A DNA stretch of 32,000 nucleotides from NCBI RefSeq assembly GCF_001545095.1, contig NZ_CP013213.1, positions 1,710,001 through 1,742,000 on the forward strand, written 5' to 3'. The notes below the pieces were generated by a model. It was not told the origin of the DNA. It did no database searches and worked only from the letters and a program-made list of their open reading frames with translations. Positions within the stretch are counted from its first letter, which is position 1; each line of letters starts with the position of its first letter. Below, in pieces: positions 6,541 through 23,743 of this stretch. The stretch is from Erysipelothrix larvae (lineage in GTDB: Bacteria > Bacillota_I > Bacilli_A > Erysipelotrichales > Erysipelotrichaceae). A program made the position numbers and the translations under genes.

Positions 6541-8190
6541 TTATTTGGTTTGGATCCATAATGCAGGTGCAAATGCAGTTTTTAAATCAGAGAAATGTTC
6601 GCGCCATATTGTACCATTCGATTCGATTGTTCCAGCGAAGTTTACAAAGAAGGAAGGGCTTCGAAGCCAGTATCTACTAGACTTCACCAGTAATTCTTCA
6701 GATAATCCATATGCATTTACATCCGACATACTGAGTGAAAATGCTGTTTTTTCTCCTTTTTTGTCAACTAATGTAGGTGCATCTGTTCTTTTATAACAGT
6801 CGGCGTTACCAGTCATGGGAACTTCTACATCCCATGATACAGGAAGTACTGATTCATGATCAGTATGATTTTTGATAATTTTATCATAGAACGCTTGATC
6901 AACAATCTTTAAGTAACTGTCGTTATAAATTGCTGGTTCACTAGTATTTGTAGCATGGCTATATGGAAATTTTTCATTTCCATTCACTGCAAGAATTTCC
7001 ATGGAGTTTAGCACTTCCATAGATACAACATCCTTGGTCATAATAAGTGCTGCTTTTGTGGTTTGATCAATATACAAGATAATAAACGATTGATCCGCAA
7101 ATGTGATGGTATCGCCAACTGTTTTGCCTTGAAGGTCAAACTCTATTGTTTCAGTGTCATCATTGGATCCTTTCAACATTCCGAGAATGTCTTGATTGGC
7201 ATCGGTCCAAAGGTCTAAATCTTCATAGGACACTGCATCCAAGTAAACGTTAATATCATAGTTTGCTTTACCGTTAGGTTGTTTTACAAGACTTACGGAT
7301 TCTAAGAAGTTAGATGTCATGGTTGTTGGAACCGTAGCGGTTGTACTATGCTCAAGTGGTTGTCCCCAATACACCCAGCCCTCTTCGCTGTGTGTATCAA
7401 TAATCCACTTGGAAACAGGTTGTAGACCATCTTGTATCCATTCATCTACGGTGATTACCTGGGAGCCAAGTTGCCATGCTACGTACTCATCAAAGACCCG
7501 ATCAGTGTCTGTCCATGTTTTGATGGTATAGTTGTGTTCATTGTTGTTTTCTGGCAGCGCGTCATGTTGTGAATCACTCTGTGCTGAATTGGATTGATTC
7601 GTTTGACCTTCCACTAAAGAAACTGGATTGAGATACTCAACATCCATTACAAGAAATTTGCCGTATTGACCGTTAGGATCATGTGCGTCGGTTCGTATGT
7701 AAACATACTCTTGGGCATCAAAGGCAGTTTTAATTGTTTCCAAGATATTCATACACGATGATCCACTAGAGGTGCATGAATGTTTGATTGATTGTAAGTA
7801 TCCTACAGCTTGAGATGATGAAGTAAATTTCATAATATCGCCTTTTTCATCCACCATATAGCGATGGTCACTGTATATGTATTTCTGCTCACTGATTTCC
7901 ATAAATTCTCTGAATTGGATGCGTACGTAGGCATCATCATAGATTAGGGCATTATCATCTGCTTTATCACCATTACGCACTGCGACACTTTTCGTAATCT
8001 GTTGATCTATGCCCCATTGTGTGACTTCTGAGAAATTCTCAACAAGTGTGACATTATGGTGTGCTACTTCAGTACTGAATTGATTGGTCTTATGTTGGTT
8101 GATATCGCGCCAAGCGTAGGAACCTGTTAACAAGAGTGATATTGCTAATAGAATCGGTGTGAATGATTTTTTCTTAAACATTTTTTTCAT
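6541..8190 (-). CDS. Secreted protein, paralog 1 of 4: SipW-class leader, conserved N-domain, DUF6273-like C-domain
   Basis: AAGGAG RBS 8 nt upstream. Leader MKKMFKKKSFTPILLAISLLLTGSYAWRDINQHKTNQFST. C-terminus ...TAFSLSMSDVNAYG...RYWLRSP...APALWIQTK. It aligns throughout with the 12415, 14860 and 21887 ORFs. Confidence 0.8.
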   Translation of the reverse strand: MKKMFKKKSFTPILLAISLLLTGSYAWRDINQHKTNQFSTEVAHHNVTLVENFSEVTQWGIDQQITKSVAVRNGDKADDNALIYDDAYVRIQFREFMEISEQKYIYSDHRYMVDEKGDIMKFTSSSQAVGYLQSIKHSCTSSGSSCMNILETIKTAFDAQEYVYIRTDAHDPNGQYGKFLVMDVEYLNPVSLVEGQTNQSNSAQSDSQHDALPENNNEHNYTIKTWTDTDRVFDEYVAWQLGSQVITVDEWIQDGLQPVSKWIIDTHSEEGWVYWGQPLEHSTTATVPTTMTSNFLESVSLVKQPNGKANYDINVYLDAVSYEDLDLWTDANQDILGMLKGSNDDTETIEFDLQGKTVGDTITFADQSFIILYIDQTTKAALIMTKDVVSMEVLNSMEILAVNGNEKFPYSHATNTSEPAIYNDSYLKIVDQAFYDKIIKNHTDHESVLPVSWDVEVPMTGNADCYKRTDAPTLVDKKGEKTAFSLSMSDVNAYGLSEELLVKSSRYWLRSPSFFVNFAGTIESNGTIWREHFSDLKTAFAPALWIQTK

Positions 8191-8230
8191 CGTATATTCT
8201 CCTTAATCGGTTACCCTTTTTTCTACTAAC

Positions 8231-8239
8231 ATTGTACCA
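8231..8239 (-). promoter_or_regulatory. Extended -10 promoter TGGTACAAT for paralog 1
   Basis: The minus strand reads aaaTTGGTACAATgtt, 40 nt upstream of the ATG. The -35 position is AAAAGA, which is poor, so the promoter is likely activator dependent. Confidence 0.5.
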
Positions 8240-8356
8240 ATTTATAGCGGGTGTCTTTTTTGTATATTTTTATCAAGTTGAAAAATGACATCGTTTGTTT
8301 ATGAATGATGAAAATACGATGGATTTCTTCGTGGTGGGATTTGTAAATGAGGCATA

Positions 8357-8388
8357 TAAAAAAACTGAGTTTATTAGGCTCAGTTTTT
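8357..8388 (-). terminator. adhE rho-independent terminator
   Basis: The minus strand reads AAAAACTGAG-CCTAATAAA-CTCAGTTTTTTT, directly after the adhE stop at 8400. Confidence 0.75.
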
Positions 8389-8399
8389 GTTAAAGCTAT

Positions 8400-11036
8400 T
8401 TATTTTGCTTTTGGTTTTGCATAATATGATTTGTTTAAAATTTCAATCATATCTGTAACAATTGGCAAGCGTGGGTTACATGGTGAACATTGATCCTCGT
8501 ATGCAAGGTATGCAACTTCTTCCTTGTGTGCTTCGAAGTCTTCAACAGCAATTCCTTGTTCTTGAAGGTTCATCACAATTCCACAACGCTCTGCAAGGTC
8601 ATGACATGCTTTTGCATAGCTTTCAACACCTTCTTCAACAGTGTCTGCTTTGAGTCCTAAGATACGTGCTAACTCAGCATAGCGCTCATTTGCACGGTAT
8701 ACATTGTACTTAGGCCATAGTGATGGTTTTTCTGGTTGTGTTCCGTTGTAACGAATTACATGAGGCATCAAGATTGCATTGATACGTCCGTGAGGTACAT
8801 GCCAACGTCCACCGATCTTATGTGCAAGTGAGTGGTTGATTCCTAAGAATGCGTTCCCAAACGCCATCCCTGCAAGTGTTGATGCATTATGCATTTTTTC
8901 ACGTGCTTCAAGATCGTTTTTACCATCTTTAACTGCGCGCTCTAAGTATTCAAATACCATCTTAACAGCTTGAACGCAGAGTCCATCTGTAAAGTCGCTT
9001 GCGAAGTTTGAAACAAATGCTTCAGTAGCATGTGTTAATACGTCTAACCCTGTATCTGCAGTTACAGATGCTGGTAGGTTTGTGGTAAAGATTGGGTCTA
9101 CGATTGCGATTTGAGGTACCATAGCGTAGTCAGCCAATGGATACTTCTTGTTTTCTTTCTTGTCTGTGATAACAGCAAATGGTGTTACTTCACTACCTGT
9201 ACCAGATGTTGTTGGGATACATACCATTTTCGCTTTACGCCCAAGTTCAGGATATTTGAATGCACGTTTACGGATATCGATGAATTTTTGTTTTAGATCA
9301 TTGAAGTCGATATCTGGTTGTTCATAGAAGATCCACATACCCTTCGCAGCATCCATTGGTGATCCACCACCAAGTGCGATGATTGTATCTGGTTTAAATG
9401 ATTGCATCATTTCGAATCCTTTACGTACTGTTTCGATTGATGGATCTGGTTCAACATCTGTAAACAATTGGATGGATACAGCGTCTCTACGTTTGTTGAG
9501 TTGATCAATGATCACGTTTGTGAATCCTAAGTTAACCATTGATTGGTCTGCTACGATGAATACACGTTCAACATCAACCATTTCTGTTAGGTAACGAATT
9601 GAGTTTCTTTCGAAGTAAATCTTTTGTGGAACTTTGAACCATTGCATATTGTTGTTACGTCTCCCTATCTTCTTAATGTTTAATAAGTGAACTGCACTAA
9701 CATTATCGCCAACTGAGTTATGACCATATGATCCACAACCAAGTGTTAATGAAGGGATGAATTCGTTGTATACGTTTCCGATTCCACCAAATGTTGATGG
9801 TGAGTTCCAGATAATACGAATTGCAGGTACTGCTTTACCAAAACGCTCTGAGATTTCTTTTGATTTTGTATGAACTGCTGCAGAGTGTCCTAGTCCATTA
9901 AATTCAACCATTTCTTTTGAAAGGCGAATTCCATCGTCGGTATCCTTCGCTTGGATTACTGCTAATACTGGAGAAAGTTTTTCACGAGTGAGTACTTCTT
10001 GAGGTCCAACAGACTTACATTCTGCAGCAAGAATTGATGTATTTGCAGGAACTGTGATTCCAGCTTGTTCAGCAAGCCATGTTGCATCGCGTCCTACGAT
10101 TGCAGGATTCAATACAGCATCTTTAAAGTTTTCGTCAACTGAAGCAACTCCGAATAGGAAGCGTTCGAGTTTCGCTTTTTCTTCTTTATTTACAAAGTAT
10201 ACGCCATACTTCTTAAGACCATCGCATACTTGTTTGTACACTTCTTTATCAGCGATTACAGCTTGTTCAGAAGCACAGATCATCCCGTTATCAAATGCTT
10301 TTGATAATGCGATATCGTTCACTGCTTGGGCGATGTCTGCAGATTTTTCGATGTATGCAGGTACGTTACCAGCTCCAACTCCAAGTGCAGGTTTACCACA
10401 TGAGTAAGCAGCGTGTACCATTGCGTTACCACCTGTTGCAAGAATTGTCGCAACGCCTTCATGTTTCATTAATTGGTCTGTTTTTTCTTTTGATCCACGT
10501 TCAATCCATTGCACACAGTTTTCAGGAGCACCTGCTTTAACCGCAGCATCTAATACTACTTTTGCAGCAGCAACTGAACATTGTTGTGCAGATGGGTGGA
10601 ATGAGAAGATAATTGGGTTACGTGTCTTTAAACAAATTAGAGATTTAAAGATTGCTGTTGATGTTGGGTTTGTTACTGGAGTAATACCACATACAACACC
10701 AACTGGTTCAGCGATTTGAGTAATTCCTGTTACTTCATCTTCATGAATGATTCCAACAGTTTTTAAGTTACGCATATTATTTGTTACGTATTCAGTAGCA
10801 AACATGTTTTTTGTCGCTTTATCTTCGAATACACCACGTTTTGTTTCTTCAACTGCTAACTTAGCAAGTGTTCCGTGGGCATCAATCGCAGCGATACATG
10901 CCTTAGCTACAATGTAATCTATTTTCTCTTGATCGAGCTCCATGAACTCTTGGAGGGCTTTTTGACCCTTCTCAACGAGTACATCGACTTCGTTATCAAT
11001 TTTTACTTCTTGTACTTTATCTACTTTTTTCGTCAT
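8400..11036 (-). CDS. adhE: Bifunctional acetaldehyde-CoA/alcohol dehydrogenase
   Basis: 878 aa. N-terminal aldehyde dehydrogenase half (ATGGNAMV, CASEQ active-site Cys context). C-terminal iron-type ADH half (GGGSPMDAAK, His-rich metal site HSLAHKIGGRWHVPHG). AAGGAG RBS. Confidence 0.97.
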   Translation of the reverse strand: MTKKVDKVQEVKIDNEVDVLVEKGQKALQEFMELDQEKIDYIVAKACIAAIDAHGTLAKLAVEETKRGVFEDKATKNMFATEYVTNNMRNLKTVGIIHEDEVTGITQIAEPVGVVCGITPVTNPTSTAIFKSLICLKTRNPIIFSFHPSAQQCSVAAAKVVLDAAVKAGAPENCVQWIERGSKEKTDQLMKHEGVATILATGGNAMVHAAYSCGKPALGVGAGNVPAYIEKSADIAQAVNDIALSKAFDNGMICASEQAVIADKEVYKQVCDGLKKYGVYFVNKEEKAKLERFLFGVASVDENFKDAVLNPAIVGRDATWLAEQAGITVPANTSILAAECKSVGPQEVLTREKLSPVLAVIQAKDTDDGIRLSKEMVEFNGLGHSAAVHTKSKEISERFGKAVPAIRIIWNSPSTFGGIGNVYNEFIPSLTLGCGSYGHNSVGDNVSAVHLLNIKKIGRRNNNMQWFKVPQKIYFERNSIRYLTEMVDVERVFIVADQSMVNLGFTNVIIDQLNKRRDAVSIQLFTDVEPDPSIETVRKGFEMMQSFKPDTIIALGGGSPMDAAKGMWIFYEQPDIDFNDLKQKFIDIRKRAFKYPELGRKAKMVCIPTTSGTGSEVTPFAVITDKKENKKYPLADYAMVPQIAIVDPIFTTNLPASVTADTGLDVLTHATEAFVSNFASDFTDGLCVQAVKMVFEYLERAVKDGKNDLEAREKMHNASTLAGMAFGNAFLGINHSLAHKIGGRWHVPHGRINAILMPHVIRYNGTQPEKPSLWPKYNVYRANERYAELARILGLKADTVEEGVESYAKACHDLAERCGIVMNLQEQGIAVEDFEAHKEEVAYLAYEDQCSPCNPRLPIVTDMIEILNKSYYAKPKAK

Positions 11037-11218
11037 ACTTTGTCTCCTTGTTAATCAATTCACTAGTATCATATCAGTTATTATTTTTTTCACAAATAAT
11101 ATATGCAAATTAATTCGCATATTTTTTACAATTTTTTCCATGTAAGAATTGTAACCGCTTTGCTTGTGAAAAATATCACTTGTTTTGTTATTCTTTATGT
11201 TTTCATCACAGAAATCAT

Positions 11219-12052
11219 TTATACCTCAATGGTAGTACTCCAATTTTTTTGTGATTGTGGCTCAATCTTTTCAATACCAAATTTATGATTTAGGATTTTA
11301 TCATGATCGATCCGATCCCCAAATCCTGCCCATGGTTCCAAGCAAACAAACGGTGCTTGGGTTCCATCTTCAAGGGTTGGTGTCCAAATTCCAAGATGTG
11401 GATATGAGCGTACATCCATCGCAAGCTTACGTTTTCCATCATGAAGGATTACACGGTGTACTTCTTCAAATACCAAGGTCATGTTTTCATACGTCATCAT
11501 ATCAAAATCAACACGATACCCATCGAATTCAGTTTCACCATTACAATACGGTCCATCAAAGGTATATTGTTTAAATGGCTTAGGTCCTTGTAATTCAATA
11601 TATGCGTCTTTTGATTCGACGATAAATGCCGGATGATATCCAAAGCTGTAATACATATCTGTTTCCCCTGCGTTAACAATGGTCGCATCGATTAATAAAT
11701 TTCTTCCCAATAATGTATAGGCTATAATCACCTCAAAATCAAAAGGATATACTTCACGGGTCTTATCATTACTCATGAATTTTAGTGTACATGCTGTTTC
11801 AGTTTGATCCTCTACGCTAAAATCACTGTCTCGTAGGAACCCGTGTTGAGATAATGGGTAGGTTTTCCCGTCAACACTGTATTCATTATCTAGAAGACGT
11901 CCTACAATCGGAAATAAAAATGGTGCCACACGATTCCACCATGTTGCATCTTTATTCCATAAAATCGATTTCCCATCCACTGTAATGGATTCCAAACTTG
12001 CACCTTTAACAGTAATTTCTGCGATTACTTCATTATTTCTAATTTTAATCAT
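11219..12052 (-). CDS. Aldose 1-epimerase family protein (LacX/YihR-like)
   Basis: 277 aa. The motifs FLFPIVGRL, YPLSQHGFLR, FGYHPAF and CLEPW are characteristic of the small aldose-epimerase family. AAGGAGG RBS. Confidence 0.85.
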   Translation of the reverse strand: MIKIRNNEVIAEITVKGASLESITVDGKSILWNKDATWWNRVAPFLFPIVGRLLDNEYSVDGKTYPLSQHGFLRDSDFSVEDQTETACTLKFMSNDKTREVYPFDFEVIIAYTLLGRNLLIDATIVNAGETDMYYSFGYHPAFIVESKDAYIELQGPKPFKQYTFDGPYCNGETEFDGYRVDFDMMTYENMTLVFEEVHRVILHDGKRKLAMDVRSYPHLGIWTPTLEDGTQAPFVCLEPWAGFGDRIDHDKILNHKFGIEKIEPQSQKNWSTTIEV

Positions 12053-12414: not shown

Positions 12415-14283
12415 TTAATCGCCAATTGAGATCCAAAGTCCTGGACGAACATAGCAAGGCTGATCATACGGTTTACTACTTCCTGGTTTACCATCACTAT
12501 AGATATTTGCGGCAACGAACGAGCTATTAGCTGGGCTTCGCAACCATGAAGACAATCCATCAACGATAGTCGCAGGAGCTATTTCATAATAATTTATATC
12601 TGAAACACTCAGAGCAAATGCAGTCTTAGTACCTGTTTGGCTAACATAAGAGTATGCGTAATCCTTAGTTTTCCAATCGGTGTATATACCCTCATCTTCT
12701 TCTACTTCATAATTTGCTGGAAGAACATAAGCATTGTCTGTATGACTCTTGATGTAATTGTTGTAATACTTTTCATTTACTTCTTCAAGATATGAACCCT
12801 CATAACCTTGATAATTAGCGCCTGTTTTGTTGAATCGAACTTTTCCACTAGAGTGCTCAAATCCCATGGATTGGATAACACTTGCTGAGAGAATATCACC
12901 GAGTAAAAGCGCAGTCTTATTTTGGGCATCAACATACACTATTGTATATATATGTCCAGCGAAGTTAATTGAATCTCCGACTTTCTTGTTTCCAAGATCA
13001 AAACCAGGTGCTTCAGCTTTTGGTTCGACATTTTTAATTGCATCTTCAAGGTCTTCAATCGCTTTGATAACATCTTCGATTGTTGTATTTGGATTATCAT
13101 ATGTGTTTTCGCCATTTTCGATAGCATTTTGAAGTTTATCACCAGACTCATCCGTTAATGTATCTTGATCAATTAGTTTTGCTTCATCAAGAAGGTCTTG
13201 AAGTTCTTGAAGTAAGTCTTCTAAGGTTTTGTTGTTAGAAGATCCTGGTGTTTTGATGTCTTCAAGCATATCGATGATATCAGAGTTTCCATCGGTCCAT
13301 AGTTTCAAGTCGTCTTGAGATACTGCATCCATTGATACATTGATTTGGTAGTTAGCAGTTCCTGTAGGTTGTTTTACAAGAGTTACACTTTCCAAGAAAT
13401 TTGGTGTCATTGTACTTGGTATTTTCGCAACATTACTGTGTTCAAGTGCTTGTCCCCAATAAACATATCCTTGATCACTAGTTGTGTCGATAATCCATTT
13501 CGCAACAGGTTGTTTTCCACCAGCAACCCATTCTTGAAGTGTGATTACTTCGCTACCCAATTGCCACTTAACATACTCATCAAATGGTGATTCAACGCCA
13601 TCCCACTTCTTAATTGTATATGTGCTTTGATCATTTTGCGCTGGTTTAACATCATGTTGTTTATCAGTGCGTGAAGAATCTGCATGATTTTCAACACCGT
13701 CTACAATTGATGTCATATCATCACCAGTTATTCCAGTTACAATATAGTTACCATATTGTCCATTAGGATCATGAGCTTGTGTTCTAATATAGTAGTATTC
13801 TTGCTTGTCAAAGTAACCTTTTAGTTTCTCAATGCGTTGATCATCTTCAAGATCATAATCATGATCGGTTAGATTCAAGGTCGCAAGGAATGCTTCTGCA
13901 GCTTCCTTTGTATCAAAACGATAGAAGTTCCCTTGAGTATCAATCATATAACGATGTCTTGTATAGACATACTCACGGCTTCCAATTTCCATGTACTCTT
14001 TGAATTGAAGACGAATAAATCCATCTTGATAAATTGCGTTGGTGTCGTTATTGTCTTCACCGTTTCGAACAGCAACACTCTTTGTAACTGCTTCACCTTT
14101 CTTCCAATTTGTAACCTCTTTAAAGTTCTCTACAAGAACAATATGATGTTCAAAATCAGCGGTACTAAAGCTGTTATTTTTATGCTGATCAAGGTTTTGC
14201 CATGCAAGTGACCCTGACAACAACAACGCGATAGCGATAGCGCCTGTCGTAAAGGTCGCTTTCTTTTTACGTGTTAGTTTCAT
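12415..14283 (-). CDS. Secreted protein, paralog 2 of 4: SipW-class leader, N-domain, FIVAR-like helical module, DUF6273-like C-domain
   Basis: The ORF track starts at GTG 14301, but that extension (GTGTTAAGGAGGAGAAAG) is itself the SD sequence. I call ATG 14283 (MKLTRKKKATFTTGAIAIALLLSGSLAWQNLDQHKNNSFST). C-terminus ...TAFALSVSDINYYE...SSWLRSP...VRPGLWISIGD. Confidence 0.85.
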   Translation of the reverse strand: MKLTRKKKATFTTGAIAIALLLSGSLAWQNLDQHKNNSFSTADFEHHIVLVENFKEVTNWKKGEAVTKSVAVRNGEDNNDTNAIYQDGFIRLQFKEYMEIGSREYVYTRHRYMIDTQGNFYRFDTKEAAEAFLATLNLTDHDYDLEDDQRIEKLKGYFDKQEYYYIRTQAHDPNGQYGNYIVTGITGDDMTSIVDGVENHADSSRTDKQHDVKPAQNDQSTYTIKKWDGVESPFDEYVKWQLGSEVITLQEWVAGGKQPVAKWIIDTTSDQGYVYWGQALEHSNVAKIPSTMTPNFLESVTLVKQPTGTANYQINVSMDAVSQDDLKLWTDGNSDIIDMLEDIKTPGSSNNKTLEDLLQELQDLLDEAKLIDQDTLTDESGDKLQNAIENGENTYDNPNTTIEDVIKAIEDLEDAIKNVEPKAEAPGFDLGNKKVGDSINFAGHIYTIVYVDAQNKTALLLGDILSASVIQSMGFEHSSGKVRFNKTGANYQGYEGSYLEEVNEKYYNNYIKSHTDNAYVLPANYEVEEDEGIYTDWKTKDYAYSYVSQTGTKTAFALSVSDINYYEIAPATIVDGLSSWLRSPANSSFVAANIYSDGKPGSSKPYDQPCYVRPGLWISIGD

Positions 14284-14367
14284 CTTTCTCCTCCTTAACA
14301 CTGGTACTGCTGGACGTGTCCTGCAAGTAAAACCATCTTACCAAGTGCATGATTTGAAAAAATAATA
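13264..14367. repeat. Tandem direct repeat, copy A (~1.1 kb; 5' two-thirds of paralog 2 plus leader and promoter)
   Basis: It aligns without gaps to 15463-16566 at a constant offset of 2,199 bp. The encoded ~340 aa differ at 9 positions by my count. Identity collapses outside these bounds. Confidence 0.9.
14335..14343 (-). promoter_or_regulatory. Extended -10 promoter TGGTAAGAT for paralog 2
   Basis: The minus strand reads acTTGGTAAGATgg, exactly 51 nt upstream of ATG 14283. The same element sits at 16534-16542. Confidence 0.55.
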
Positions 14368-14859: not shown

Positions 14860-16482
14860 TTATCTGTCAATTGAAATCCAAAGTGCGGGACGAACCAGGT
14901 TTATGTGATTAAACACTTGTCCTGCATATAGCTTACCATCCGTGTATATAGTTCCAGCTTGATCAACATCGCCACCCGGACTGCGAAGCCACGAACCAGT
15001 ACCATCTGCGAGATATACATCAGTCATTTTATAATAATTTATGTCCGAAACTGCTAATGCAAATGCAGTTTTTAGACCATTTTCGTGAATGTAAGAAAAC
15101 TTATCGTTCTTCACATTCCAATTACTTGGGTCGAATCCTTCTACTTGAAATATAGCTGGAAGAACGAATACATTGTCTTCGTGTGTAGAAACCTTCACCT
15201 CATAAAATTTGTCGATAACTTGTTTCAAATAAGATTCTTCGTACCCATCATATTCATCATTCGTTAGAATGTAACGGATTTCTCCACCATAATTGATAAT
15301 ATTCATCTCATTAAGAATATTCCCAGGGATAAAATCTCCTAAGATTAAGGCCGTTCTGTTTTTTTCGTCTATATATTCAATTGTGTATTCATGATCCGCA
15401 AAGATTATTTTATCACCTACACCCTTATCATCAATACTAAACCCTGGTGTTTGGTCTCCCCCAAGCATATCAATGATATCAGGATTTCCATCTATCCATA
15501 GTTTCAAGTCATCTTGAGATACTGCATCCATTGATACATTGATTTGGTAGTTAGCAGTTCCTGTAGGTTGTTTTACAAGTGTTACACTTTCCAAGAAATT
15601 TGGTGTCATTGTACTTGGTATTTTCGCAACATTACTGTGTTCAAGTGCTTGTCCCCAATAAACATATCCTTGATCACTATTTGTGTCGATAATCCATTTC
15701 GCAACAGGTTGTTTTCCACCAGCAATCCATTCTTGAAGTGTGATTACTTCGCTACCCAATTGCCACTTAACATACTCATCAAATGGTGATTCAACGCCAT
15801 CCCACTTCTTAATTGTATATGTGCTTTGATCATTTTGCGCTGGTTTAACATCATGTTGTTTATCAGTGCGTGAAGAATCTGCATGATTTTCAACACCGTC
15901 TACAATTGATGTCATATCATCACCAGTTATTCCAGTTACAATATAGTTACCATATTGTCCATTAGGATCATGAGCTTGTGTTCTAATATAGTAGTATTCT
16001 TGCTTGTCAAAGTAACCTTTTAGTTTCTCAATGCGTTGATCATCTTCAAGATCATAATCATGATCGGTTAGATTCAAGGTCGCAAGGAATGATTCTGCAG
16101 CTTCCTTTGTATCAAAACGATAGAAGTTCCCTTGAGTATCAATCATATAACGATGTCTTGTGTAGACATACTCACGGCTTCCAATTTCCATGTACTCTTT
16201 GAATTGAAGACGAATAAATCCATCTTGATAAATTGCGTTGGTGTCGTTATTGTCTTCACCGTTTCGAACAGCAACACTCTTTGTAACTGCTTCACCTTTC
16301 TTCCAATTTGTAACCTCTGTAAAGTTCTCTACAAGAACAATATGATGTTCAAAATTAGCAGTGCTAAAGCTGTTGTTTTTATGCTGATTAAGGTTTTGCC
16401 ATGCAAGTGACCCTGACAACAACAACGCGATAGCGATAGCGCCTGTCGTAAAGGTCGCTTTCTTTTTACGTGTTAGTATCAT
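14860..16482 (-). CDS. Secreted protein, paralog 3 of 4: SipW-class leader, N-domain, DUF6273-like C-domain, no helical module
   Basis: Start corrected from GTG 16500 to ATG 16482 (MILTRKKKATF...). The N-terminal ~340 aa are near-identical to paralog 2. C-terminus ...TAFALAVSDINYYK...GSWLRSPGG...VRPALWISIDR. Confidence 0.85.
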   Translation of the reverse strand: MILTRKKKATFTTGAIAIALLLSGSLAWQNLNQHKNNSFSTANFEHHIVLVENFTEVTNWKKGEAVTKSVAVRNGEDNNDTNAIYQDGFIRLQFKEYMEIGSREYVYTRHRYMIDTQGNFYRFDTKEAAESFLATLNLTDHDYDLEDDQRIEKLKGYFDKQEYYYIRTQAHDPNGQYGNYIVTGITGDDMTSIVDGVENHADSSRTDKQHDVKPAQNDQSTYTIKKWDGVESPFDEYVKWQLGSEVITLQEWIAGGKQPVAKWIIDTNSDQGYVYWGQALEHSNVAKIPSTMTPNFLESVTLVKQPTGTANYQINVSMDAVSQDDLKLWIDGNPDIIDMLGGDQTPGFSIDDKGVGDKIIFADHEYTIEYIDEKNRTALILGDFIPGNILNEMNIINYGGEIRYILTNDEYDGYEESYLKQVIDKFYEVKVSTHEDNVFVLPAIFQVEGFDPSNWNVKNDKFSYIHENGLKTAFALAVSDINYYKMTDVYLADGTGSWLRSPGGDVDQAGTIYTDGKLYAGQVFNHINLVRPALWISIDR

Positions 16483-16566
16483 CTTTCTCCTCCTTAACAC
16501 TAATACTGCTGGACGTGTCCTGCAAGTAAATCCATCTTACCAAGTGAATGATTCGAAAAAATAATA
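15463..16566. repeat. Tandem direct repeat, copy B
   Basis: Partner of 13264-14367. Confidence 0.9.
16534..16542 (-). promoter_or_regulatory. Extended -10 promoter TGGTAAGAT for paralog 3
   Basis: Same sequence and the same 51-nt spacing to the ATG as at 14335-14343. Confidence 0.55.
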
Positions 16567-16842: not shown

Positions 16843-16917
16843 CTAAATATATAAAATAAATTGATATCTTTTACCTTAAGTACGATTTTAAATTGCAAAT
16901 AACAAAAGGAGATGGCG

Positions 16918-18468
16918 ATGCAAAATCATCTATTTTTTGCTTTAAATAATAATAAACAATTGTGTAGGCAAATTAAAACATTGACCTATATGCGCTCTCA
17001 CGACAGCCCAATGAGTATTAATGAACTGGTACAACATGTGGGATGCTCTATCCCAACAATGCGTCAAGACATCAATAACCTCAATGATGAGCTTATGGGC
17101 TATTTGAAAATTGTATCCAACGATAAAGATGGGTATACATTATCATTGGATACGATGAGTATGGATGCGATTTTGGTGAAGATGGCTAAAGAGAGTGATG
17201 TTTTTCGTATTATTGATGACATTTTCCATCATGAAATCCATACCTTTGATGAATTACTTGCAGATTTATACCTATCGCCAACTAAACTAAGGAAAACATT
17301 AAATCATATAAACACCGTGCTTGTTTCTTATAATATTGCGCTTTCCACACGATATGTTGATCTTATTGGATGTGAATCGGATATCCGTTACTTCTTCTTT
17401 GCCTTCTACAGTGATTTTAATGATTTTTTCACCATTGATAGTAACTTTGATCGGAGGGAGTATATTTATCAGGTGTTTCATGAACGCGCAATTCAGAGTA
17501 TCATCCCTCATTTTCACTTAAGCAACTTTAGAATGACCTTATGGAGTATAATCATCCATAATCGTATTAAACACCAAAGATTTGTAAGGGTTGACGATCA
17601 TCTTAAAGAGGAATTGCAAGTTTTTGTTTCGTTTGAAAAGTTTAAAGAAGCGTTTATCGATGTGTATCGCAATGCATTCTTAATTCATAACCCTCCCCTT
17701 GATGATATTATCTGGGCGTATGCCATGCTTTTACATAGTGTATCCTACAGCGGACCCAGCCATAGCATTTTTAGTCACTACATCAAGGATTATACACACC
17801 TTGAAACGATTCCTTTGGAATTATCGCAGCGTGTTGAATCCTTATTAATGCATCAATTTGATGAACCAACGATTCACAGTACAGCAATTGATCCGGTTCG
17901 TTCTTATTTGATTAACCTTTCAATTCTTACACGTATTTCACCACAACTTCAACGCGTGTCGAAGTCTTTTAAGCTCTTTGCACACGAGACCATTGATGAT
18001 TTAGTCATCCTTTGGATGAACCATCTCGAGACCCCTGAAGCAAAAGGGTTATTACCAATTGTCTTCAAGGAAGATGTTGCGTGTTCATTAGCAATGCTTC
18101 ATTTCTCTTTTATCAGCCACCAAAAGGATTTTGACCTCTGTGTTCTGTTTGCTTTTCATGGTGAACCTGGATATGATGACTTTCTCATGTATCTATCGCA
18201 ATTTATGATTCCTAAAAATGTAACAACTGCGTTTTTGTTTGACAAGCCAATCACACATGATATCTTGAATCTTGTAAACACTGATTTGGTTGTAACAAAT
18301 TATGACTTACCCGATGCACATAAGATGCAGTGTGATGTCATTCAATTATCCTACATACCCAGTATGGCTGAATGGACTTCACTTCGAAATGCAATTCTCA
18401 ATTTGGCTGCTTCAAAGCATTCGCGAAGTAAACCCGATGAAGACATGGATTCACATTCTTTCTCATAA
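16918..18468 (+). CDS. Mga/AtxA-family (PCVR-like) transcriptional regulator, paralog 2
   Basis: The ORF track starts at 16912, directly abutting AAGGAG. The second ATG (16918) gives MQNHLFFALNNNKQLCRQI, which matches the MHNKRLFFSLN / MQSKRLFFLLN starts of the paralogs. Same HTH, Mga and EIIB-like blocks (VLFAFHGEPGYDDF...LVVTNYD). Confidence 0.8.
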   Translation: MQNHLFFALNNNKQLCRQIKTLTYMRSHDSPMSINELVQHVGCSIPTMRQDINNLNDELMGYLKIVSNDKDGYTLSLDTMSMDAILVKMAKESDVFRIIDDIFHHEIHTFDELLADLYLSPTKLRKTLNHINTVLVSYNIALSTRYVDLIGCESDIRYFFFAFYSDFNDFFTIDSNFDRREYIYQVFHERAIQSIIPHFHLSNFRMTLWSIIIHNRIKHQRFVRVDDHLKEELQVFVSFEKFKEAFIDVYRNAFLIHNPPLDDIIWAYAMLLHSVSYSGPSHSIFSHYIKDYTHLETIPLELSQRVESLLMHQFDEPTIHSTAIDPVRSYLINLSILTRISPQLQRVSKSFKLFAHETIDDLVILWMNHLETPEAKGLLPIVFKEDVACSLAMLHFSFISHQKDFDLCVLFAFHGEPGYDDFLMYLSQFMIPKNVTTAFLFDKPITHDILNLVNTDLVVTNYDLPDAHKMQCDVIQLSYIPSMAEWTSLRNAILNLAASKHSRSKPDEDMDSHSFS

Positions 18469-18474
18469 AACTCA

Positions 18475-18498
18475 AAAGGAGTCACTGACTCCTTTTTA
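18475..18498. terminator. Bidirectional terminator between regulator 2 and the LPETG gene
   Basis: AAAAGGAGT-CACTG-ACTCCTTTTT, flanked by A and T runs, in the 35-bp convergent gap. Confidence 0.75.
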
Positions 18499-18503
18499 AG
18501 TGT

Positions 18504-21080
18504 TTATGAATTGGATTCGTTGTGTGATCCTTTTTTCAAGTGTGCAAAGCGTCTTAACTCTTGTAATGCAAAGGTTAATCCTCCAAGACAGACGAGTAAG
18601 AATCCTATAAATGCAGTGTTTCTATGCTCAGTTCCGGTTTCTGGTAGATCTGGTTTTGATGGTTTAACCGGTTTAGGTTCTTCATCAATGCGTTTTTCAT
18701 ACGTGTTGGTGAAGGTAATTGAATCCACAATTTGTCCGGCTTTTGTATAAGTAACCTGATCAACTACAAGTTTCAGTCTTTGTTCACTGACACTTACTTG
18801 AACTGTAACAGGGTCCATATCATATTCATACTCAGAAGTTCGATCGACGATTTCTCGAATGACATAGGTATAAGTGCCTACTTTGGTAAAGGTAATTTCT
18901 CCAAAGGATGCACTCCCTTCCCCATTTATGAGTACAGTGCTTGTATCTTGAACGGGTGCGTTGTTCATCCCCGTCAGTTTAAATGCAAAGGTTTCATCGG
19001 GTGCATTTCCATCGGATTTGATAATCTTACTAATATCAAATTGAAGGCTTGTTGGGACACGGTATGTGAGCTTAATGACATAATTGTCTAAGTATTCGAT
19101 TTCAAAATGTTCGCGGTCTTTTGTTCTGACATAATACTCGATTTCATTGCCATCTTTATCATACTTCGGCACTTCAAACTCAAACTTCCAATCCTGGTCT
19201 TTGTTTGTGGTTGTACATGCAATTTCAACACCATCGCCATTATAAACACACACTTCAATTTCATCTGGAATCACATGATCATAGCCATCTGGAACATTCC
19301 AAATCACTTCCCCTTCAATGATATTGTTGATGATTGATTTATCAAAGGTGTTGACCGCTTTAACATGCGTCGTCGTTCCTTCAACTGCATTCCCTTTTCC
19401 ATTGAATAGATTTAGAATATACCCCTCTTGCTGATAGTCTTTTTCTTTAACTTCATAGTGTGCTCCAGGTTTTACTTCAATCGTTTTAGATTGACCATGT
19501 TTCAACGTGAATGACTCTGTAACACCATCGATTGTGAGTGTAAACTCAAATGCTTTATTTAAGTCTCCTTCACCAACTACTTCTTTTCTTATTTCTAGAA
19601 GCGTTTTTTGTGGTTCAGGTATGAAACGGTTTTTAAAGGTTACAGTTGTATCCTTACGATCCACCACTCCACTCACTGTATTAACAAGTTCTTGATATGT
19701 TTCAAGATCTTGTTCATGGATTTCGTAGGTTGTGCCATAGGGAATGTTCTCAAATACAGCAGTTGAATTTGCTGGGATTTGAAGTGTTGACCCTTCATCA
19801 TACTTCACAGGATTTCCACCGTCAATTGACACAGTAAGTTCTTCAATATGTTCACTAAATGATACGGTAAATGTGAAACTGTCTTTAAGCGTGGTTCCCA
19901 CAACATCTTTTTTAACAATAAGCGATCCCGTCTTTGCTTCAGGTGTATCGTTTAGATAGGTATTGGTCACGACATATTCCATCACTGTATCGCGTGATGT
20001 TGTCCCTTGGATCTCATTGTGTGAACTACTATATCCTTGATTGCTTGCATCAGTTTCCTTGATTGTGTACTTCAAATTGTCTTTGTGTGTCTGTACCACA
20101 AGGGTGTCATAATGTTTGAGCATAATTGTGTCTCCACTTGCGAGTTCAAATGGGATCGAACCATTTAACGATGCAAAGTAGGTCATGCCGTCTTCAAATG
20201 TAATGGTAAATTCAAATTCAGTCAGAAGTTGGTCTAAGGATAATTGTGAACCATCCCGATTCACAACGTGCTTTGTGAGAATAAACGATCCATCCCCTTT
20301 TTCTTCATCAATTACATGAGTAATGGTTACATCATCATGCCCTTTAAGAATTCCTGTAACATCTGTGATATCGGGTGTGTAGCCTTCTTTAGGAATGGTT
20401 TGTATAGAGTATTCAAGACCACATGGAAGGTTTTCGAAAAGAATGGATTCAAGGTGTTTCAAAAAGACTGAACCTGTTCCATCAATCACACCGCTTTGAT
20501 TACTTCCTGTAAAGGTATATGGATAGGATTTTCCATCACTAAATGTAATCACGTACTCAAACTCAAGATTGCGTTGATCATCACTGAGCATGGTGCCATT
20601 ACTGTTTTTCACGATATTCAACAGTTCAAGTGAACATGTATTACATACACTATAGGTTTGAACTAATACATACTTTTTGAGACTACAATCAACACTAAAT
20701 TCAAACTTGAGTGGGTCTTCTAACTGTTCATCAAGATAAAAATCATATCCAGAAGGCGGCATAATTCCCTTGAAGTAATAGTCCCCTGATTCAAGATGCA
20801 GGGTAACTTCTCCTGATTCATTTGTTGTGTAAATATCACCGATACGTTCATCTCCAAGCTCGTTTTTACGGTACAATTCAAAGCTTGCACCTTCTAACAT
20901 TTTACTTGTATTCAGTTCTGAATTATCAAGAATAACAACACATTGATTAAACTCTGTTCCAAAGTTTGCGGTTTTGTGTTGCGTATCATCATACCAAGCA
21001 CTGAGTGTTGAGATTGTAAGGAGCATGACAAATAATGCAATGACCCCCGATTTGATTTTCTTATACGCTCGTTTTCTCAT
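18504..21080 (-). CDS. LPETG cell-wall-anchored multi-domain surface protein: SpaA/Cna-B prealbumin folds and a Spy0128/FctA-like pilin isopeptide domain, with a SipW-class leader
   Basis: Leader MRKRAYKKIKSGVIALFVMLLTISTLSAWYDDTQHKTANFGTE. SpaA-type block FELYRKNE...NESGEVTLHLESGDYYFKGIMPPSGY. Cna-B-like block IEGEVIWNVPDG...DWKFEFEVPKYDKDGNEIEYYV. FctA-like block ETFAFKLTG...GEITFTKVGTYTYVIREI...ITFTNTY. C-terminal LPETG, hydrophobic segment and basic tail. Confidence 0.9.
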   Translation of the reverse strand: MRKRAYKKIKSGVIALFVMLLTISTLSAWYDDTQHKTANFGTEFNQCVVILDNSELNTSKMLEGASFELYRKNELGDERIGDIYTTNESGEVTLHLESGDYYFKGIMPPSGYDFYLDEQLEDPLKFEFSVDCSLKKYVLVQTYSVCNTCSLELLNIVKNSNGTMLSDDQRNLEFEYVITFSDGKSYPYTFTGSNQSGVIDGTGSVFLKHLESILFENLPCGLEYSIQTIPKEGYTPDITDVTGILKGHDDVTITHVIDEEKGDGSFILTKHVVNRDGSQLSLDQLLTEFEFTITFEDGMTYFASLNGSIPFELASGDTIMLKHYDTLVVQTHKDNLKYTIKETDASNQGYSSSHNEIQGTTSRDTVMEYVVTNTYLNDTPEAKTGSLIVKKDVVGTTLKDSFTFTVSFSEHIEELTVSIDGGNPVKYDEGSTLQIPANSTAVFENIPYGTTYEIHEQDLETYQELVNTVSGVVDRKDTTVTFKNRFIPEPQKTLLEIRKEVVGEGDLNKAFEFTLTIDGVTESFTLKHGQSKTIEVKPGAHYEVKEKDYQQEGYILNLFNGKGNAVEGTTTHVKAVNTFDKSIINNIIEGEVIWNVPDGYDHVIPDEIEVCVYNGDGVEIACTTTNKDQDWKFEFEVPKYDKDGNEIEYYVRTKDREHFEIEYLDNYVIKLTYRVPTSLQFDISKIIKSDGNAPDETFAFKLTGMNNAPVQDTSTVLINGEGSASFGEITFTKVGTYTYVIREIVDRTSEYEYDMDPVTVQVSVSEQRLKLVVDQVTYTKAGQIVDSITFTNTYEKRIDEEPKPVKPSKPDLPETGTEHRNTAFIGFLLVCLGGLTFALQELRRFAHLKKGSHNESNS
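18507..18647 (-). other. Sortase sorting signal: LPETG (18633-18647), TM segment, charged tail
   Basis: The minus strand reads GAT CTA CCA GAA ACC GGA ACT = DLPETGT. This is followed by AFIGFLLVCLGGLTFAL and QELRRFAHLKKGSHNESNS. Confidence 0.9.
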
Positions 21081-21679
21081 AAATCAATAACGTTCTTCCT
21101 TTCTTTTTTCAATTCTTTCAAATAATCACTTGCTGAATTTTTAAATGCAATGATGAGAATAACAATAACACCACTTAGGATATAGTTCTCTTTAATGTAA
21201 GAAATATAGATTCCCAACTGAGGAACGGTTAGTTTTACTTCTCCGATCACATTGGCAGCATAGACTTTTTCTTTGTCAATCTCATCGTTATCAACACCTT
21301 TTGTACTGAAAGCAAGTCCATTGCCTTCATAGTTGTCAATCACTTCAACGATTTCGTGGGTAACAATACTCACCTTGCCATTGATTTTGGTGTAATAGGT
21401 GATGTATTCACCCACCTCTAAGGTTTCAGGATCATCTCGATGTGTTACAATGAGGGACCCTCTTGGCATGACTGAACGCATTGAATCGGTTTGAATGTAG
21501 AAGATTGAGGTATCAAAGAGTGTCTTTGCTTCATCTGGACGCTGGTTTTGCAATACAACCAAAACAATAATAAGTCCAATTAACGCATAGAACAGTATCT
21601 CAGAAAGCGACTTCATGACGCTTGAAATTCGATGTTTTTTTATGGGTTTCAATGTTTCGTTCGTTTGGTTTTCATTCAT
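21077..21679 (-). CDS. sipW: Signal peptidase I, ER/archaeal type (SipW-like, S26B)
   Basis: 200 aa with N- and C-terminal TM segments. TDSMRSVMPRGSLIV, VTHEIVEV and TKGVDND line up with SipW SGSMEP, THRI and KGDNN, so the Ser and His are retained. AAGGAAG RBS. The stop overlaps the ATG of the 858-aa ORF (ATGA). Confidence 0.85.
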   Translation of the reverse strand: MNENQTNETLKPIKKHRISSVMKSLSEILFYALIGLIIVLVVLQNQRPDEAKTLFDTSIFYIQTDSMRSVMPRGSLIVTHRDDPETLEVGEYITYYTKINGKVSIVTHEIVEVIDNYEGNGLAFSTKGVDNDEIDKEKVYAANVIGEVKLTVPQLGIYISYIKENYILSGVIVILIIAFKNSASDYLKELKKERKNVIDL

Positions 21680-21698
21680 GGCTATCTTCCTTATCTAT

Positions 21699-21766
21699 CC
21701 TTATAGGAATTGCCTTGTACAAGAATTTGGCTGGCGGAATAGGTTCACAAGGCAATTCTTATAAAG
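21699..21766. repeat. Inverted-repeat element, copy B: arms CCTTATAGGAATTGCCTTG / CAAGGCAATTCTTATAAAG around a ~30-nt loop
   Basis: Near-identical arms to copy A (12247-12320) with an unrelated loop. It ends 20 nt upstream of the sipW ATG, just 5' of its RBS. Confidence 0.7.
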
Positions 21767-21886
21767 ATAACTCATAATTAATTGAGTTGTCTTTATGTCA
21801 TAGTTAATGGTTTACAAACAAGGATCAAGGAGACATACTCAAGTATGCTCCATTGATCGTGTTATTAACTAATATTTGTACTCGTT

Positions 21887-23743
21887 TTATTTAGTAATCG
21901 AAATCCAAAGTGCAGGGCGTAATGCATTAGTGCCTGTTGTACCATTAGCAGTTGTTAATCTTCCTTGGCTGTTTACGATTGCTACATTTACGTTTCCATT
22001 TGCAGGTGTTCTCAACCATACTTCTGTATTTGCATCCAAGATAGTATTTGATATACCATAACGATTTACATCAGATACACTGAGTGAGAATGCTGTTTTT
22101 GTTCCATTTTCATCTACAGTTGTTGGTGTCGCACTTGAAGAATTCCAGTTTGTACTTGCTGATTCAGCTGGTAGGTTTACAGCTAACACAAACTCACTAT
22201 CTTGTTTTCCATTAATAAATGTATTATAGAATGCTGTATCAGCAGTCTTTAGATATGATCCAGAGTAAGCGGTTCTTGAAGTGCCATTATTTTGGTATCG
22301 CACTTGATTGCTCAATATTCCGTGATTAATATCTGCAGTATTCAGATCCGAGTATGATAATACATCAGATAGAATCAATGCAGTGTTCGCTGCTTCATCA
22401 ATATAAGCGATTGTGAAAGTACGGTTAGCAAATTGAATCTTATCCCCTACTTTTTTACCTGTGATGTCAAAACCTGTTGCTTTTACAACAAGGTTATCCA
22501 TAACATCTTGAAGGTTATCAATTGCATTTTGCACTTCTTCAGCTGTTACACCTGATTTATCATGAACTGTTTCACCATTATTGATTGCATCAAGTAAGTC
22601 TTGAGCTGATGCATCTTCTAGTGTAGTTGAGTCAATGAGTTTTGCTTCATCGATGAGATCTTGAAGTTCTTGTAGAAGTTCTTTAAGTTGAGTGTCCTCA
22701 ACAGGTGCTGATCCCTCACTGCCTTTTAACATATTCACGATGTCTTTGTTTCCATTAACCCATAGGTCAAGGTCTTCAATGGATACTGCATCCATAACTA
22801 CATTAATTTGGTAGAATGCTGTACCATTAGGTTGTTCAATCAATGTTACAGTTTCTAAGAAGTTTGGAGTAAGTGTTTCAGGAACTGAAGCAGTCTTGCT
22901 GTGTGCAAGTGCTTGACCCCAATATACCCAACCTTCATCACTCGTTGTATCAATGATCCACTTCGCTACTGGTTGTTTTCCACCTTCAATCCATTGTTCC
23001 AATGTAATGACATCTTCTCCTAATTGCCATTCAACATATTTTTCAAATGCTGAAGTTGAATCATCCCATGTTTTCACAGTGTATTGTGATTCATTATTAT
23101 CTGCAGGATTTTCATCGTGTTGTTTATCATTACGTGCTGATTCAGATTGGTTTGTTTGACCATCAATAATTGATTTCATTTCTTCTTCAACATCAAGGAT
23201 TACAAACTTACCATATTGTCCATTTGGATCATGTGCTTGGGTACGGATGTAGAAATATGCTTGGTCATCAAAGTATCCTTTTTGCGAAACAATACGATCT
23301 TGTGGATCTAGATCAGAATCATAATCTTTTTGGTCTAGTGTTGCTAAGAACGCTTCTGCTTCTGCTTGAGTTGAAAAACGGTAGAAGTTTCCATCTGTAT
23401 CGATCATATAACGATTTTCGCTATATACATAGGTACGTTCGCCAATTTCCATATACTCTTTAAATTGTAAACGGATGTATGCATCCTTATATATAGATTT
23501 AGCTGTGTCAGCGTCTTCACCATTTCTTACAGAAACAGCTTTAACGATTGCTTGACCTTTTTCCCATTCACTTACTTCTTCAAAGTCTTCAATCAATGTT
23601 ACATTGAAGTCTACTGTTTTCGTTGTGAAATTGTTGGTCTTGTGCTGTGTATAATCATGCCACGCAAGTGACCCAGATAATAGTAAGGCGATTGCCAGAG
23701 CACCCGTTGTTACGGTTGCTTTCTTTTTATGTGTTAATTTCAT
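21887..23743 (-). CDS. Secreted protein, paralog 4 of 4: SipW-class leader, N-domain, FIVAR-like helical module, DUF6273-like C-domain
   Basis: Start corrected from GTG 23761 to ATG 23743 (MKLTHKKKATVTTGALAIALLLSGSLAWHDYTQHKTNNFTT). C-terminus ...TAFSLSVSDVNRYG...EVWLRTP...LRPALWISITK. Confidence 0.85.
   Translation of the reverse strand: MKLTHKKKATVTTGALAIALLLSGSLAWHDYTQHKTNNFTTKTVDFNVTLIEDFEEVSEWEKGQAIVKAVSVRNGEDADTAKSIYKDAYIRLQFKEYMEIGERTYVYSENRYMIDTDGNFYRFSTQAEAEAFLATLDQKDYDSDLDPQDRIVSQKGYFDDQAYFYIRTQAHDPNGQYGKFVILDVEEEMKSIIDGQTNQSESARNDKQHDENPADNNESQYTVKTWDDSTSAFEKYVEWQLGEDVITLEQWIEGGKQPVAKWIIDTTSDEGWVYWGQALAHSKTASVPETLTPNFLETVTLIEQPNGTAFYQINVVMDAVSIEDLDLWVNGNKDIVNMLKGSEGSAPVEDTQLKELLQELQDLIDEAKLIDSTTLEDASAQDLLDAINNGETVHDKSGVTAEEVQNAIDNLQDVMDNLVVKATGFDITGKKVGDKIQFANRTFTIAYIDEAANTALILSDVLSYSDLNTADINHGILSNQVRYQNNGTSRTAYSGSYLKTADTAFYNTFINGKQDSEFVLAVNLPAESASTNWNSSSATPTTVDENGTKTAFSLSVSDVNRYGISNTILDANTEVWLRTPANGNVNVAIVNSQGRLTTANGTTGTNALRPALWISITK

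Follow-up and report, generated by a model that had tools for sequence, protein, structure and literature searches.

Four paralogs with a BsaA-like N-terminus and a DUF6273-like C-domain at a SipW locus of Erysipelothrix larvae

The paralogs and their setting

A stretch of 32,000 nt from Erysipelothrix larvae (NZ_CP013213.1, positions 1,710,001 to 1,742,000; hereafter the window) contains four related genes, termed paralogs A to D, each encoding a leader, a conserved N-domain and a more variable C-domain. The locus raises the question of what such proteins are for and whether they act together. The answer to which we lean, with moderate confidence, is that the four are secreted and serve as subunits of a SipW-dependent fibre or adhesin system on the cell surface, of the type of the TasA/BsaA superfamily. 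As the original prediction had stated, the four open reading frames (ORFs), which all lie on the minus strand, can be aligned in full, with a mean column identity of 66% and tblastn E-values among them of 1e-107 to 0, well above chance; the motifs it quoted are present in the alignment. No fifth paralog and no remnants of one were found in the 32-kb window.

6541..8190, minus strand: paralog A, 549 residues; N-domain and leader ~7165-8190; DUF6273-like C-domain 6544-7146; partial TIGR04090 match
12415..14283, minus strand: paralog B, 622 residues from ATG; N part 13267-14283; helical FIVAR-like linker 13012-13266; C-domain 12418-13011
14860..16482, minus strand: paralog C, 540 residues from ATG; signal peptide 16402-16482; putative donor strand 16357-16401; N-domain core 15466-16356; C-domain 14863-15450
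21887..23743, minus strand: paralog D, 618 residues from ATG; N part 22730-23743; linker 22484-22729; C-domain 21890-22483

The ORFs of B, C and D had been called from a GTG codon (12415-14301, 14860-16500 and 21887-23761, all minus). In all three genes the sequence reads GTG TTA AGG AGG AGA AAG ATG, with a perfect AGGAGG Shine-Dalgarno sequence 6 nt upstream of the ATG; because this site precedes the downstream ATG, the GTG 'starts' are artefacts, and the three proteins therefore comprise 622, 540 and 618 residues, lengths that agree with those of gene callers. The end coordinate given by the original prediction, 23743, is the ATG of paralog D. In each paralog, a 27-residue leader of the Sec type, ending in G-S-L/Y-A, is followed by a conserved post-cleavage segment (W-x-D/N-x-x-Q-H-K-x-N-x-F), a beta-rich N-domain of ~300-310 residues, a hinge and a C-domain of ~195 residues. 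The hinge of B and D is an extra helical linker of ~85 residues with a weak FIVAR match, which had been missing from the original prediction.

What ties the N-domain to a known family is its beginning. The leader and first strands (residues 13-83) match TIGR04090, the model for the 'BsaA family SipW-dependent biofilm matrix protein' (curated cut-off 60 bits), with an E-value of 1.5e-11; the matching stretch comprises the leader and the first ~45 mature residues. Because the mature fragment deprived of its signal peptide still matches (28.3 bits, E 1.4e-6, profile positions 28-68), the similarity is, as far as sequence comparison goes, not merely that of a signal peptide, and by the same comparison the first strands of the N-domain are homologous to BsaA-family proteins. 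TIGR04090 also matches 46 of 53 relatives of the N-domain family. No Pfam family covers the N-domain in the paralogs, nor that region in 61 relatives.

Directly downstream of paralog D lies a gene for a SipW-type signal peptidase, which overlaps by 4 nt with the gene of a wall-anchored protein, here called the stalk. Regulator genes stand beside C and D.

21077..21679, minus strand: signal peptidase I of the SipW (archaeal/endoplasmic reticulum) type; TIGR02228 66.4 bits versus a cut-off of 51.85, NF046067 (SipW) E 4e-16
18504..21080, minus strand: LPETG wall-anchored stalk protein, 858 residues, with SpaA, DUF7601 (four copies), DUF5979, Cna_B and FctA isopeptide domains
18474..18496, minus strand: terminator-like hairpin just 3' of the stalk gene, from a consensus scan only
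16912..18468, plus strand: Mga/AcpB/EbpR/MafR-family regulator, divergent from C; NF053736 170 bits versus a cut-off of 130; Pfam Mga
24182..25699, plus strand: Mga/AcpB/EbpR/MafR-family regulator, divergent from D; NF053736 181 bits

Paralog D, sipW and the stalk gene likely form an operon, with D as its first gene and the hairpin as its end. The N-terminus of the stalk ('LSAWYDDTQHKTANFGT') resembles that of the paralogs ('LAWQNLNQHKNNSFST'): it bears their leader/donor-strand motif AW..(D)TQHKt.NF.T, and residues 2-57 of D align with it at 42% identity over 57 residues (E 6e-4).

The same gene set (N-domain gene, SipW gene and stalk gene) is found again in distant Clostridia. Among 29 independent related loci, mostly from termite-gut and human-gut metagenome-assembled genomes (MAGs) of Oscillospiraceae/Ruminococcaceae, a SipW gene adjoins an N-domain gene in 23, being directly upstream on the same strand in 22; four of the remaining six have less than 3 kb of upstream sequence. 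Tandem N-domain genes (two to four) occur in 9 of the 29 loci and a SpaA/Cna_B stalk-type gene in at least 10. In L013 and L001, N-domain genes are followed downstream by a stalk gene of the same architecture; L013 combines sipW, four N-domain genes and a stalk with the domain order found here. N-domain proteins, stalks and small Pro/Thr-rich proteins of related loci have the motif G-[TS]-x-A-W-x-D-x-x-Q-H-K-[TS]-N in common. The small proteins (~140-250 residues; L005 8293-8943, L006 8208-8906, L009 9370-10221, L014 8356-8946, L022 3877-4629) have a SipW-type leader and a Q-H-K-T-N strand and then a Pro/Thr-rich tail only; they may be 'strand-only' alternatives that serve as primers, caps or anchors across the wall.

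The N-domain family is large. A word-indexed search returned 21 homologs only; an exhaustive profile search returned 1,130 representative clusters at E<=1e-3, with 224 at E<=1e-30. Its members were found mainly in the gut MAGs of the kind named above, and the best related locus among species representatives is 39% identical. In nearly all matches listed the domain stands at the N-terminus, in proteins of 235-1,886 residues. The C-terminal cargo of 61 relatives includes Big_2 (23), DUF6273 (13) and FIVAR (10) modules, and also Glug, Listeria-Bacteroides repeats, CBM5/12 and CBM20; a dockerin also occurs. Proteins consisting of the N-domain only (~320-370 residues) make up about one fifth of the listed relatives, and none of 156 N-domain proteins contains an LPXTG motif.

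Several observations on the family stand apart. P0029 (1,407 residues), at the top of the profile search, has four N-domain profile stretches, the best starting at residue 405; it is the only case among the matches listed in which the domain is not N-terminal, and may represent a tandem, a fusion or an error of gene calling. A homolog search with the N-terminal profile yielded, in place of BsaA, short proteins of a sister family. This family (metagenome fragments P0173-P0185), with the N-terminus 'GGTFAWQSISQxALNE...RLHDDF..NKDVYVENF..FARVRLDEYMEIG', keeps the Asn, R-x-x-x-x-E-Y-M-E-I and the K-x-V-x-V-x-N strand, with Q-H-K replaced. A loop, H-D-P-N-G-Q-Y-G (residues 176-184 of paralog C, window ~15949-15975, with equivalents in A, B and D), is near-invariant in 160 members (D178 84%, G181 97%, G184 98%). 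Together with the invariant R97, E102 and D272 it is a candidate metal (calcium?) site, which by analogy might resemble that of AbpX fibres.

The C-domain and the divergence of the paralogs

The C-domain had been described as DUF6273-like, which proved right in substance, albeit below the Pfam threshold. With the PF19789 (DUF6273) profile, for which the gathering threshold is 23.5 bits, paralogs D, C and B score 21.4, 17.6 and 16.7 bits, over profile positions 114-171 only and within their last ~50 residues; in A there is no match. A profile of the four C-domains found a protein, P0022, that is itself barely over the DUF6273 cut-off (23.7 versus 23.5 bits), and hhalign of the C-domain profile against P0022 gives a probability of 97.4% (E 1.3e-11, 180 columns). 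The C-domain profile further matches the C-termini of ~20 of 150 listed N-domain relatives, and PF19789 itself matches in 13 of 61 scanned multi-domain relatives (best E 3.4e-21), with relatives of the same architecture among them. At the level of the fold, the best BFVD matches of the full-length AlphaFold model are mostly phage 'DUF6273 domain-containing' proteins (E 2.9e-7 to 4e-4), with a probability of 1.0 and target-normalised TM-scores of 0.47-0.58 for single-domain targets. Because of the profile match and the fold match, the C-domain is, judged by profile and model, a divergent DUF6273 domain. Against solved structures, the C-domain model gave no match to C-lectin, Mtd or FGE domains. 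DUF6273 has been described as a C-type-lectin-like, receptor-binding fold of gut phages that is often diversified by retroelements (PMC10743442; bioRxiv 10.1101/2024.10.15.618418).

The same prediction held that the C-domain was 'rapidly diverging'. The C-domains are indeed the more diverged part, with amino acid identities of 34-44% in all pairs of paralogs as against 51-60% for the N-domains (97% in the B/C pair), but the rapidity is unsupported: the ratio of non-synonymous to synonymous substitution rates (dN/dS) spans 0.17-0.33, being 0.17 (B/D, C/D) and 0.21 (B/C) for the N-domain, where it is undefined for pairs with A, and 0.22-0.33 for the C-domain in all pairs, and dS is saturated in both domains of all pairs except the B/C N-domain (dS 0.05; the B/C C-domain has a dS >2). 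The sharpest contrast between the domains, that of B and C, is due to a tract of ~1.07 kb and not to differing substitution rates:

13275..14341, minus strand: gene-conversion tract in B, with its partner in C at 15475-16540; 98-100% nucleotide identity over ~1.07 kb
15475..16540, minus strand: gene-conversion tract in C, with its partner in B at 13275-14341

The tract starts ~40 nt before the listed GTG, or ~58 nt before the true ATG, and ends exactly at the end of the N-domain, its flanks being only 40-60% identical; as read from the nucleotide alignment, it is the signature of gene conversion or of a recent partial duplication.

Comparison with a second strain (Logan SRR6161627, locus L030) gives 99.7% identity across 15.5 kb, with 43 single-nucleotide polymorphisms (SNPs). 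Fifteen of these fall within 373 bp of the C-domain of D (12 synonymous, 3 non-synonymous) and two in its N-domain, whereas the stalk, sipW and regulator genes, ~6 kb in all, have none. The cluster in the C-domain looks like an imported recombination patch under purifying selection. SNPs also cluster at window positions 25998-27463, with 14 in a VanZ-like gene and 5 in an NAD-binding gene, which suggests several small recombination patches. In place of a rapidly diverging C-domain, the divergence of the paralogs is old, under purifying selection and shaped by recombination, including gene conversion.

A proposed strand-exchange fibre and its alternatives

The fibres of the TasA/BsaA type are built by exchange of strands. 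TasA polymerises in that its N-terminal strand (residues 28-38) completes the beta-sandwich of the next subunit, and TapA, the N-terminus of which resembles the TasA strand, has been proposed to supply the first strand (PMC9674648). In BsaA, strand exchange is locked by an isopeptide bond between N35 and K74, with E56 as the catalyst, and the mutants lose the oligomers (PMC11580942). LPXTG anchors are frequent in the TasA-superfamily loci of Bacillota, and donor-strand complementation is the predicted means by which they join the fibre (bioRxiv 10.64898/2026.01.04.697558); loci with such anchors are also described in PMC11580942.

A candidate counterpart of this set of residues is found here. 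Among 160 members, 91% keep N43, 90% E58 and 92.5% K74 (counted from the GTG; counted from the ATG, they are N37, E52 and K68), and the triad is complete in 135 of them. The Asn belongs to the N-x-F motif, which is like V33-x-N35-x-F37 of BsaA, the Glu to the next strand, and the Lys to the strand K-x-V-x-V-x-N-x-G. Losses within the triad are correlated (Fisher p 1e-4 to 6e-7, uncorrected for phylogeny and with a few fragments included). In the full-length AlphaFold model of C made from a deeper alignment (pLDDT 87.9), residues 32-48 are the sole part of low confidence (pLDDT <50) and are disordered, the same as reported for the donor strand in BsaA monomer models (PMC11580942).

The mechanism that we propose is as follows. 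By homology and synteny, SipW would cut off residues 1-27 and thereby expose an N-terminal donor strand. The strand could then insert into the beta-sandwich of a following subunit, in the manner of TasA, BsaA and AbpX. The joint may then be locked by an intermolecular isopeptide between N37 and K68, catalysed by E52, in parallel to N35/E56/K74 of BsaA. The stalk, with a donor strand and no acceptor domain, would both supply the first strand and provide the anchor on the peptidoglycan via LPETG, much as TapA does, which again is read from homology and synteny. Because their donor strands and N-domains are similar, the four paralogs could co-assemble, and the fibre would show four different lectin-like DUF6273 heads for different ligands, those of B and D being carried on FIVAR-type spacers. 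The Mga/EbpR-type regulators beside C and D probably control expression.

A number of results weigh against this proposal. The TIGR04090 scores (27.5-44.5 bits) all lie under the cut-off of 60, and PF12389 (Peptidase_M73, camelysin) reaches at most 20.6 bits on the same stretch, under its cut-off of 22.5. The BsaA and camelysin matches are confined to the first ~70 positions of profiles that have 241 (or 196), and chimeras joining the first and last strands, with the internal 180 residues removed, match TIGR04090 no further than position ~72. The original prediction had likened both edges of the N-domain to TasA/camelysin strands; the first strands do match TIGR04090, but adding the last ones does not extend the match. 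A sequence search of the PDB with N-domain profiles yielded no TasA-family chain, only the Big_2 parts of relatives being matched, and hhalign of the N-domain profile against TasA (sequence verified against 8AUR) yielded nothing (Prob 0.6%). A first N-domain model (21 sequences, pLDDT 74.7) gave no meaningful fold match in the PDB, with TasA absent. When the model of pLDDT 87.9 was searched with Foldseek against 350,000 PDB chains, the top match was the TasA fibre (8AUR_A), though not significantly so (E 0.054, prob 0.41, target-normalised TM 0.30). The N-domain is also larger (~310 residues) than known subunits (~170-230). The likening of N37/E52/K68 to N35/E56/K74 of BsaA is made by the N-x-F motif and spacing only, and the spacing differs, with 15 and 16 residues here versus 21 and 18 in BsaA. 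As to gene order, A, B and C lie outside the sipW operon, there is no sortase ORF in the window, and P0005 (L031, ENA ERZ17811656 contig, gene 10001-12133), at 43% identity the closest relative of the first homolog search with an N-domain, FIVAR-like linker and DUF6273-like domain, is solitary near dnaA/dnaN with no sipW within 10 kb, resembling A-C. From the weak 8AUR match and the null hhalign result, a TasA-like jelly-roll with insertions is therefore plausible for the N-domain but not demonstrated at the fold level. What stands of the predicted TasA/camelysin-like scaffold is the BsaA-like leader and first strands, the linkage to SipW and the rank of 8AUR as top PDB match; significance of that match, scores above cut-off and an hhalign match to TasA are what it lacks.

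Alternatively, the paralogs could be interchangeable tip adhesins, each docking singly by accepting the donor strand of the stalk, with its own N-terminal segment serving as the SipW recognition site only. The stalk indeed has a donor-like N-terminus and no acceptor domain, the subunits are large (540-622 residues) and bear a binding head, as is typical of tip adhesins, and 'tip proteins' are predicted in TasA-superfamily loci (bioRxiv 10.64898/2026.01.04.697558). We nevertheless regard this as unlikely: subunits and stalks conserve Q-H-K-x-N-x-F equally strongly, many family members are headless, and the strand Asn co-varies with E58 and K74 within the same proteins, which would be hard to explain if the strand of the subunit had no partner. 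Less likely again is that the paralogs are soluble or loosely attached secreted lectins, with the N-domain a non-polymerising module, SipW merely a dedicated peptidase and no exchange of strands. Most of the N-domain is without a significant fold or sequence match, and A, B, C and P0005 are not beside sipW, as this would have it; it is opposed by the tight linkage of sipW, N-domain and stalk genes across distant taxa, by the homology of the first strands to the BsaA family, by the disorder of the N-terminal strand in the monomer model, by a leader common to the paralogs and an LPXTG protein, and by the conserved, co-varying strand residues and the many headless members.

We give very little credence to the N-domain being an enzyme (a camelysin-like metalloprotease or a glycoside-active domain that DUF6273 would target to its substrate). 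The weak Peptidase_M73 matches and the invariant polar residues R97, E102, D178-x-N-G-Q-Y-G184 and D272 would fit; the 'camelysin peptidase' label is, however, considered a misidentification of CalY (PMC11580942), the Peptidase_M73 matches are limited to the leader and first strands, and no enzyme family or fold was matched. Scarcely credible at all is programmed variation, in which a diversity-generating retroelement (DGR) or cassette switching would diversify the C-domains and give antigenic variation. Although DGRs do target DUF6273 domains in gut phages (PMC10743442; bioRxiv 10.1101/2024.10.15.618418), the 32 kb contain neither a reverse transcriptase ORF nor a template/variable repeat pair, and no inverted repeats or invertible promoters were found in the window; the conversion tract between B and C, which might seem to speak for such a process, homogenises the N-domain and not the variable head, and the SNP cluster in the C-domain of D in the second strain, with 12 synonymous and 3 non-synonymous changes and a low dN/dS, is more like ordinary recombination under purifying selection. 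A DGR within the window is largely refuted, as it contains neither a reverse transcriptase ORF nor a template repeat that would match a target's 3' end. Sortase-polymerised pilins were likewise rejected: the 156 N-domain proteins have no LPXTG, the window has no sortase ORF, and LPETG is present on the stalk only.

The proposed fibre stands close to several known systems. With BsaA and the bsa operon of Clostridium perfringens (TIGR04090; PMC11580942, PMC7395162) it shares the linkage to SipW, a leader of 27 residues with an N-x-F donor-strand motif behind it, first strands that are homologous (by a significant, if sub-cutoff, TIGR04090 match), a conserved Asn/Glu/Lys set (putatively equivalent in position, by motif and spacing only), several paralogs per locus and LPXTG and SpaA-domain partners nearby. 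Unlike in BsaA, the N-domain has ~310 residues with large insertions and only the first ~70 fit the model, the subunits are fused to FIVAR and DUF6273 modules, and the locus lacks type IV pilus genes, a VWA protein and an adjacent sortase. With TasA/TapA/SipW of Bacillus subtilis (PDB 8AUR, 5OF1; PMC9674648, PMC10151520) there is in common a dedicated SipW, a putative beta-sandwich subunit with 8AUR as the top PDB fold match, an N-terminal strand opening with an aromatic and an acidic residue, and an accessory protein whose N-terminus mimics the donor strand, the LPETG stalk taking the role of TapA; in contrast, TasA itself shows no detectable sequence similarity and only a weak fold match (TM 0.30), the subunit here has twice the size and an extra binding domain, and the anchor is a sortase substrate with isopeptide domains rather than TapA. 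The AbpX-like TasA-superfamily loci of Bacillota with LPXTG/SLH anchors (bioRxiv 10.64898/2026.01.04.697558) also cluster genes for a signal peptidase I and for major and minor subunits with that of an LPXTG anchor, which by prediction attaches through donor-strand complementation, and there, too, the strand opens with aromatic and acidic residues; their peptidases, however, have ten transmembrane helices, whereas that found here is of the 200-residue SipW type, and no lectin heads are described for AbpX.

The heads and the stalk have their own parallels. The C-domain resembles the DUF6273 receptor-binding proteins of gut phages ('tentaclins', Mtd-like DGR targets; PMC10743442) in fold (BFVD E down to 2.9e-7), in the motifs tAF.LS..D, WLRSP and vRPALW and in a likely role in ligand binding, but it occurs in a cellular host, without a DGR, with sub-threshold Pfam scores, and C-terminal to a fibre-subunit domain instead of Ig-like tail domains. 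With sortase-assembled pili (e.g., Enterococcus Ebp with EbpR) the locus shares the SpaA, Cna_B and FctA isopeptide domains and LPETG of the stalk as well as AcpB/EbpR/MafR-family regulators beside structural genes; it differs in that the window has no pilus-specific sortase, the paralogs have no LPXTG or pilin motif, and polymerisation, if any, would proceed by strand exchange rather than by sortase.

As a general scheme, a SipW-linked set of TasA/BsaA-like paralogs with LPXTG/SpaA partners is already known. Not described before is the large N-domain clade, which has no curated model, carries diverse C-terminal modules and is fused to DUF6273. A more far-reaching and only tentative possibility is that the locus represents a third kind of Gram-positive fibre: a strand-exchanged, isopeptide-locked heteropolymer of large TasA-superfamily subunits, with a sortase-anchored first-strand stalk and mixed, interchangeable DUF6273 heads along its length. 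The N-domain would then be an undescribed polymerisation module that also bears Big_2, CBM, Glug and dockerin cargo in gut Clostridia. If the strand-exchange fibre is real, donor-strand fibres of the TasA/BsaA type extend from small matrix subunits to large cargo-bearing ones, Gram-positive gut bacteria could, with no need of a pilus sortase, present many different binding modules on a single self-assembling scaffold, and the N-domain family (1,130 clusters at E<=1e-3, no Pfam model) would gain a testable function. The Asn/Glu/Lys set would be a second natural intermolecular 'exchange-and-lock' isopeptide, of interest for protein engineering. The DUF6273 heads tie bacterial adhesion to a fold so far known mainly from phage receptor-binding proteins, and the whole would be a modular, multivalent 'lectin fibre' bearing the fold that phages diversify for receptor binding.

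Surroundings of the genes

An Rfam scan of the window gave no matches, and a consensus scan found fewer promoter-like sites in it than in shuffled sequence, so that it gives no information on the separate promoters that the original prediction ascribed to the four copies. Near the left window edge is a further regulator:

2450..3913, plus strand: third Mga/AcpB/EbpR/MafR-family regulator, divergent from an MSCRAMM-like adhesin gene

The adhesin ORF (window 3-1802, minus strand), which runs past the left edge, has a signal peptide and Big_8 and SpaA domains; all three regulators therefore stand head-to-head with surface-protein genes. Between this regulator and paralog A lies an insertion sequence (4190-6269, plus strand), composed of a DUF6431 protein (4190-4660) and an ISL3-family transposase (4794-6269), which may have separated A from its original neighbours. 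Between A and B (window 8400-12052, minus strand) are two genes of the housekeeping type, for adhE (878 residues) and an aldose 1-epimerase (277 residues); with such genes interleaved, the paralogs are thus scattered rather than joined in one operon as in L013.

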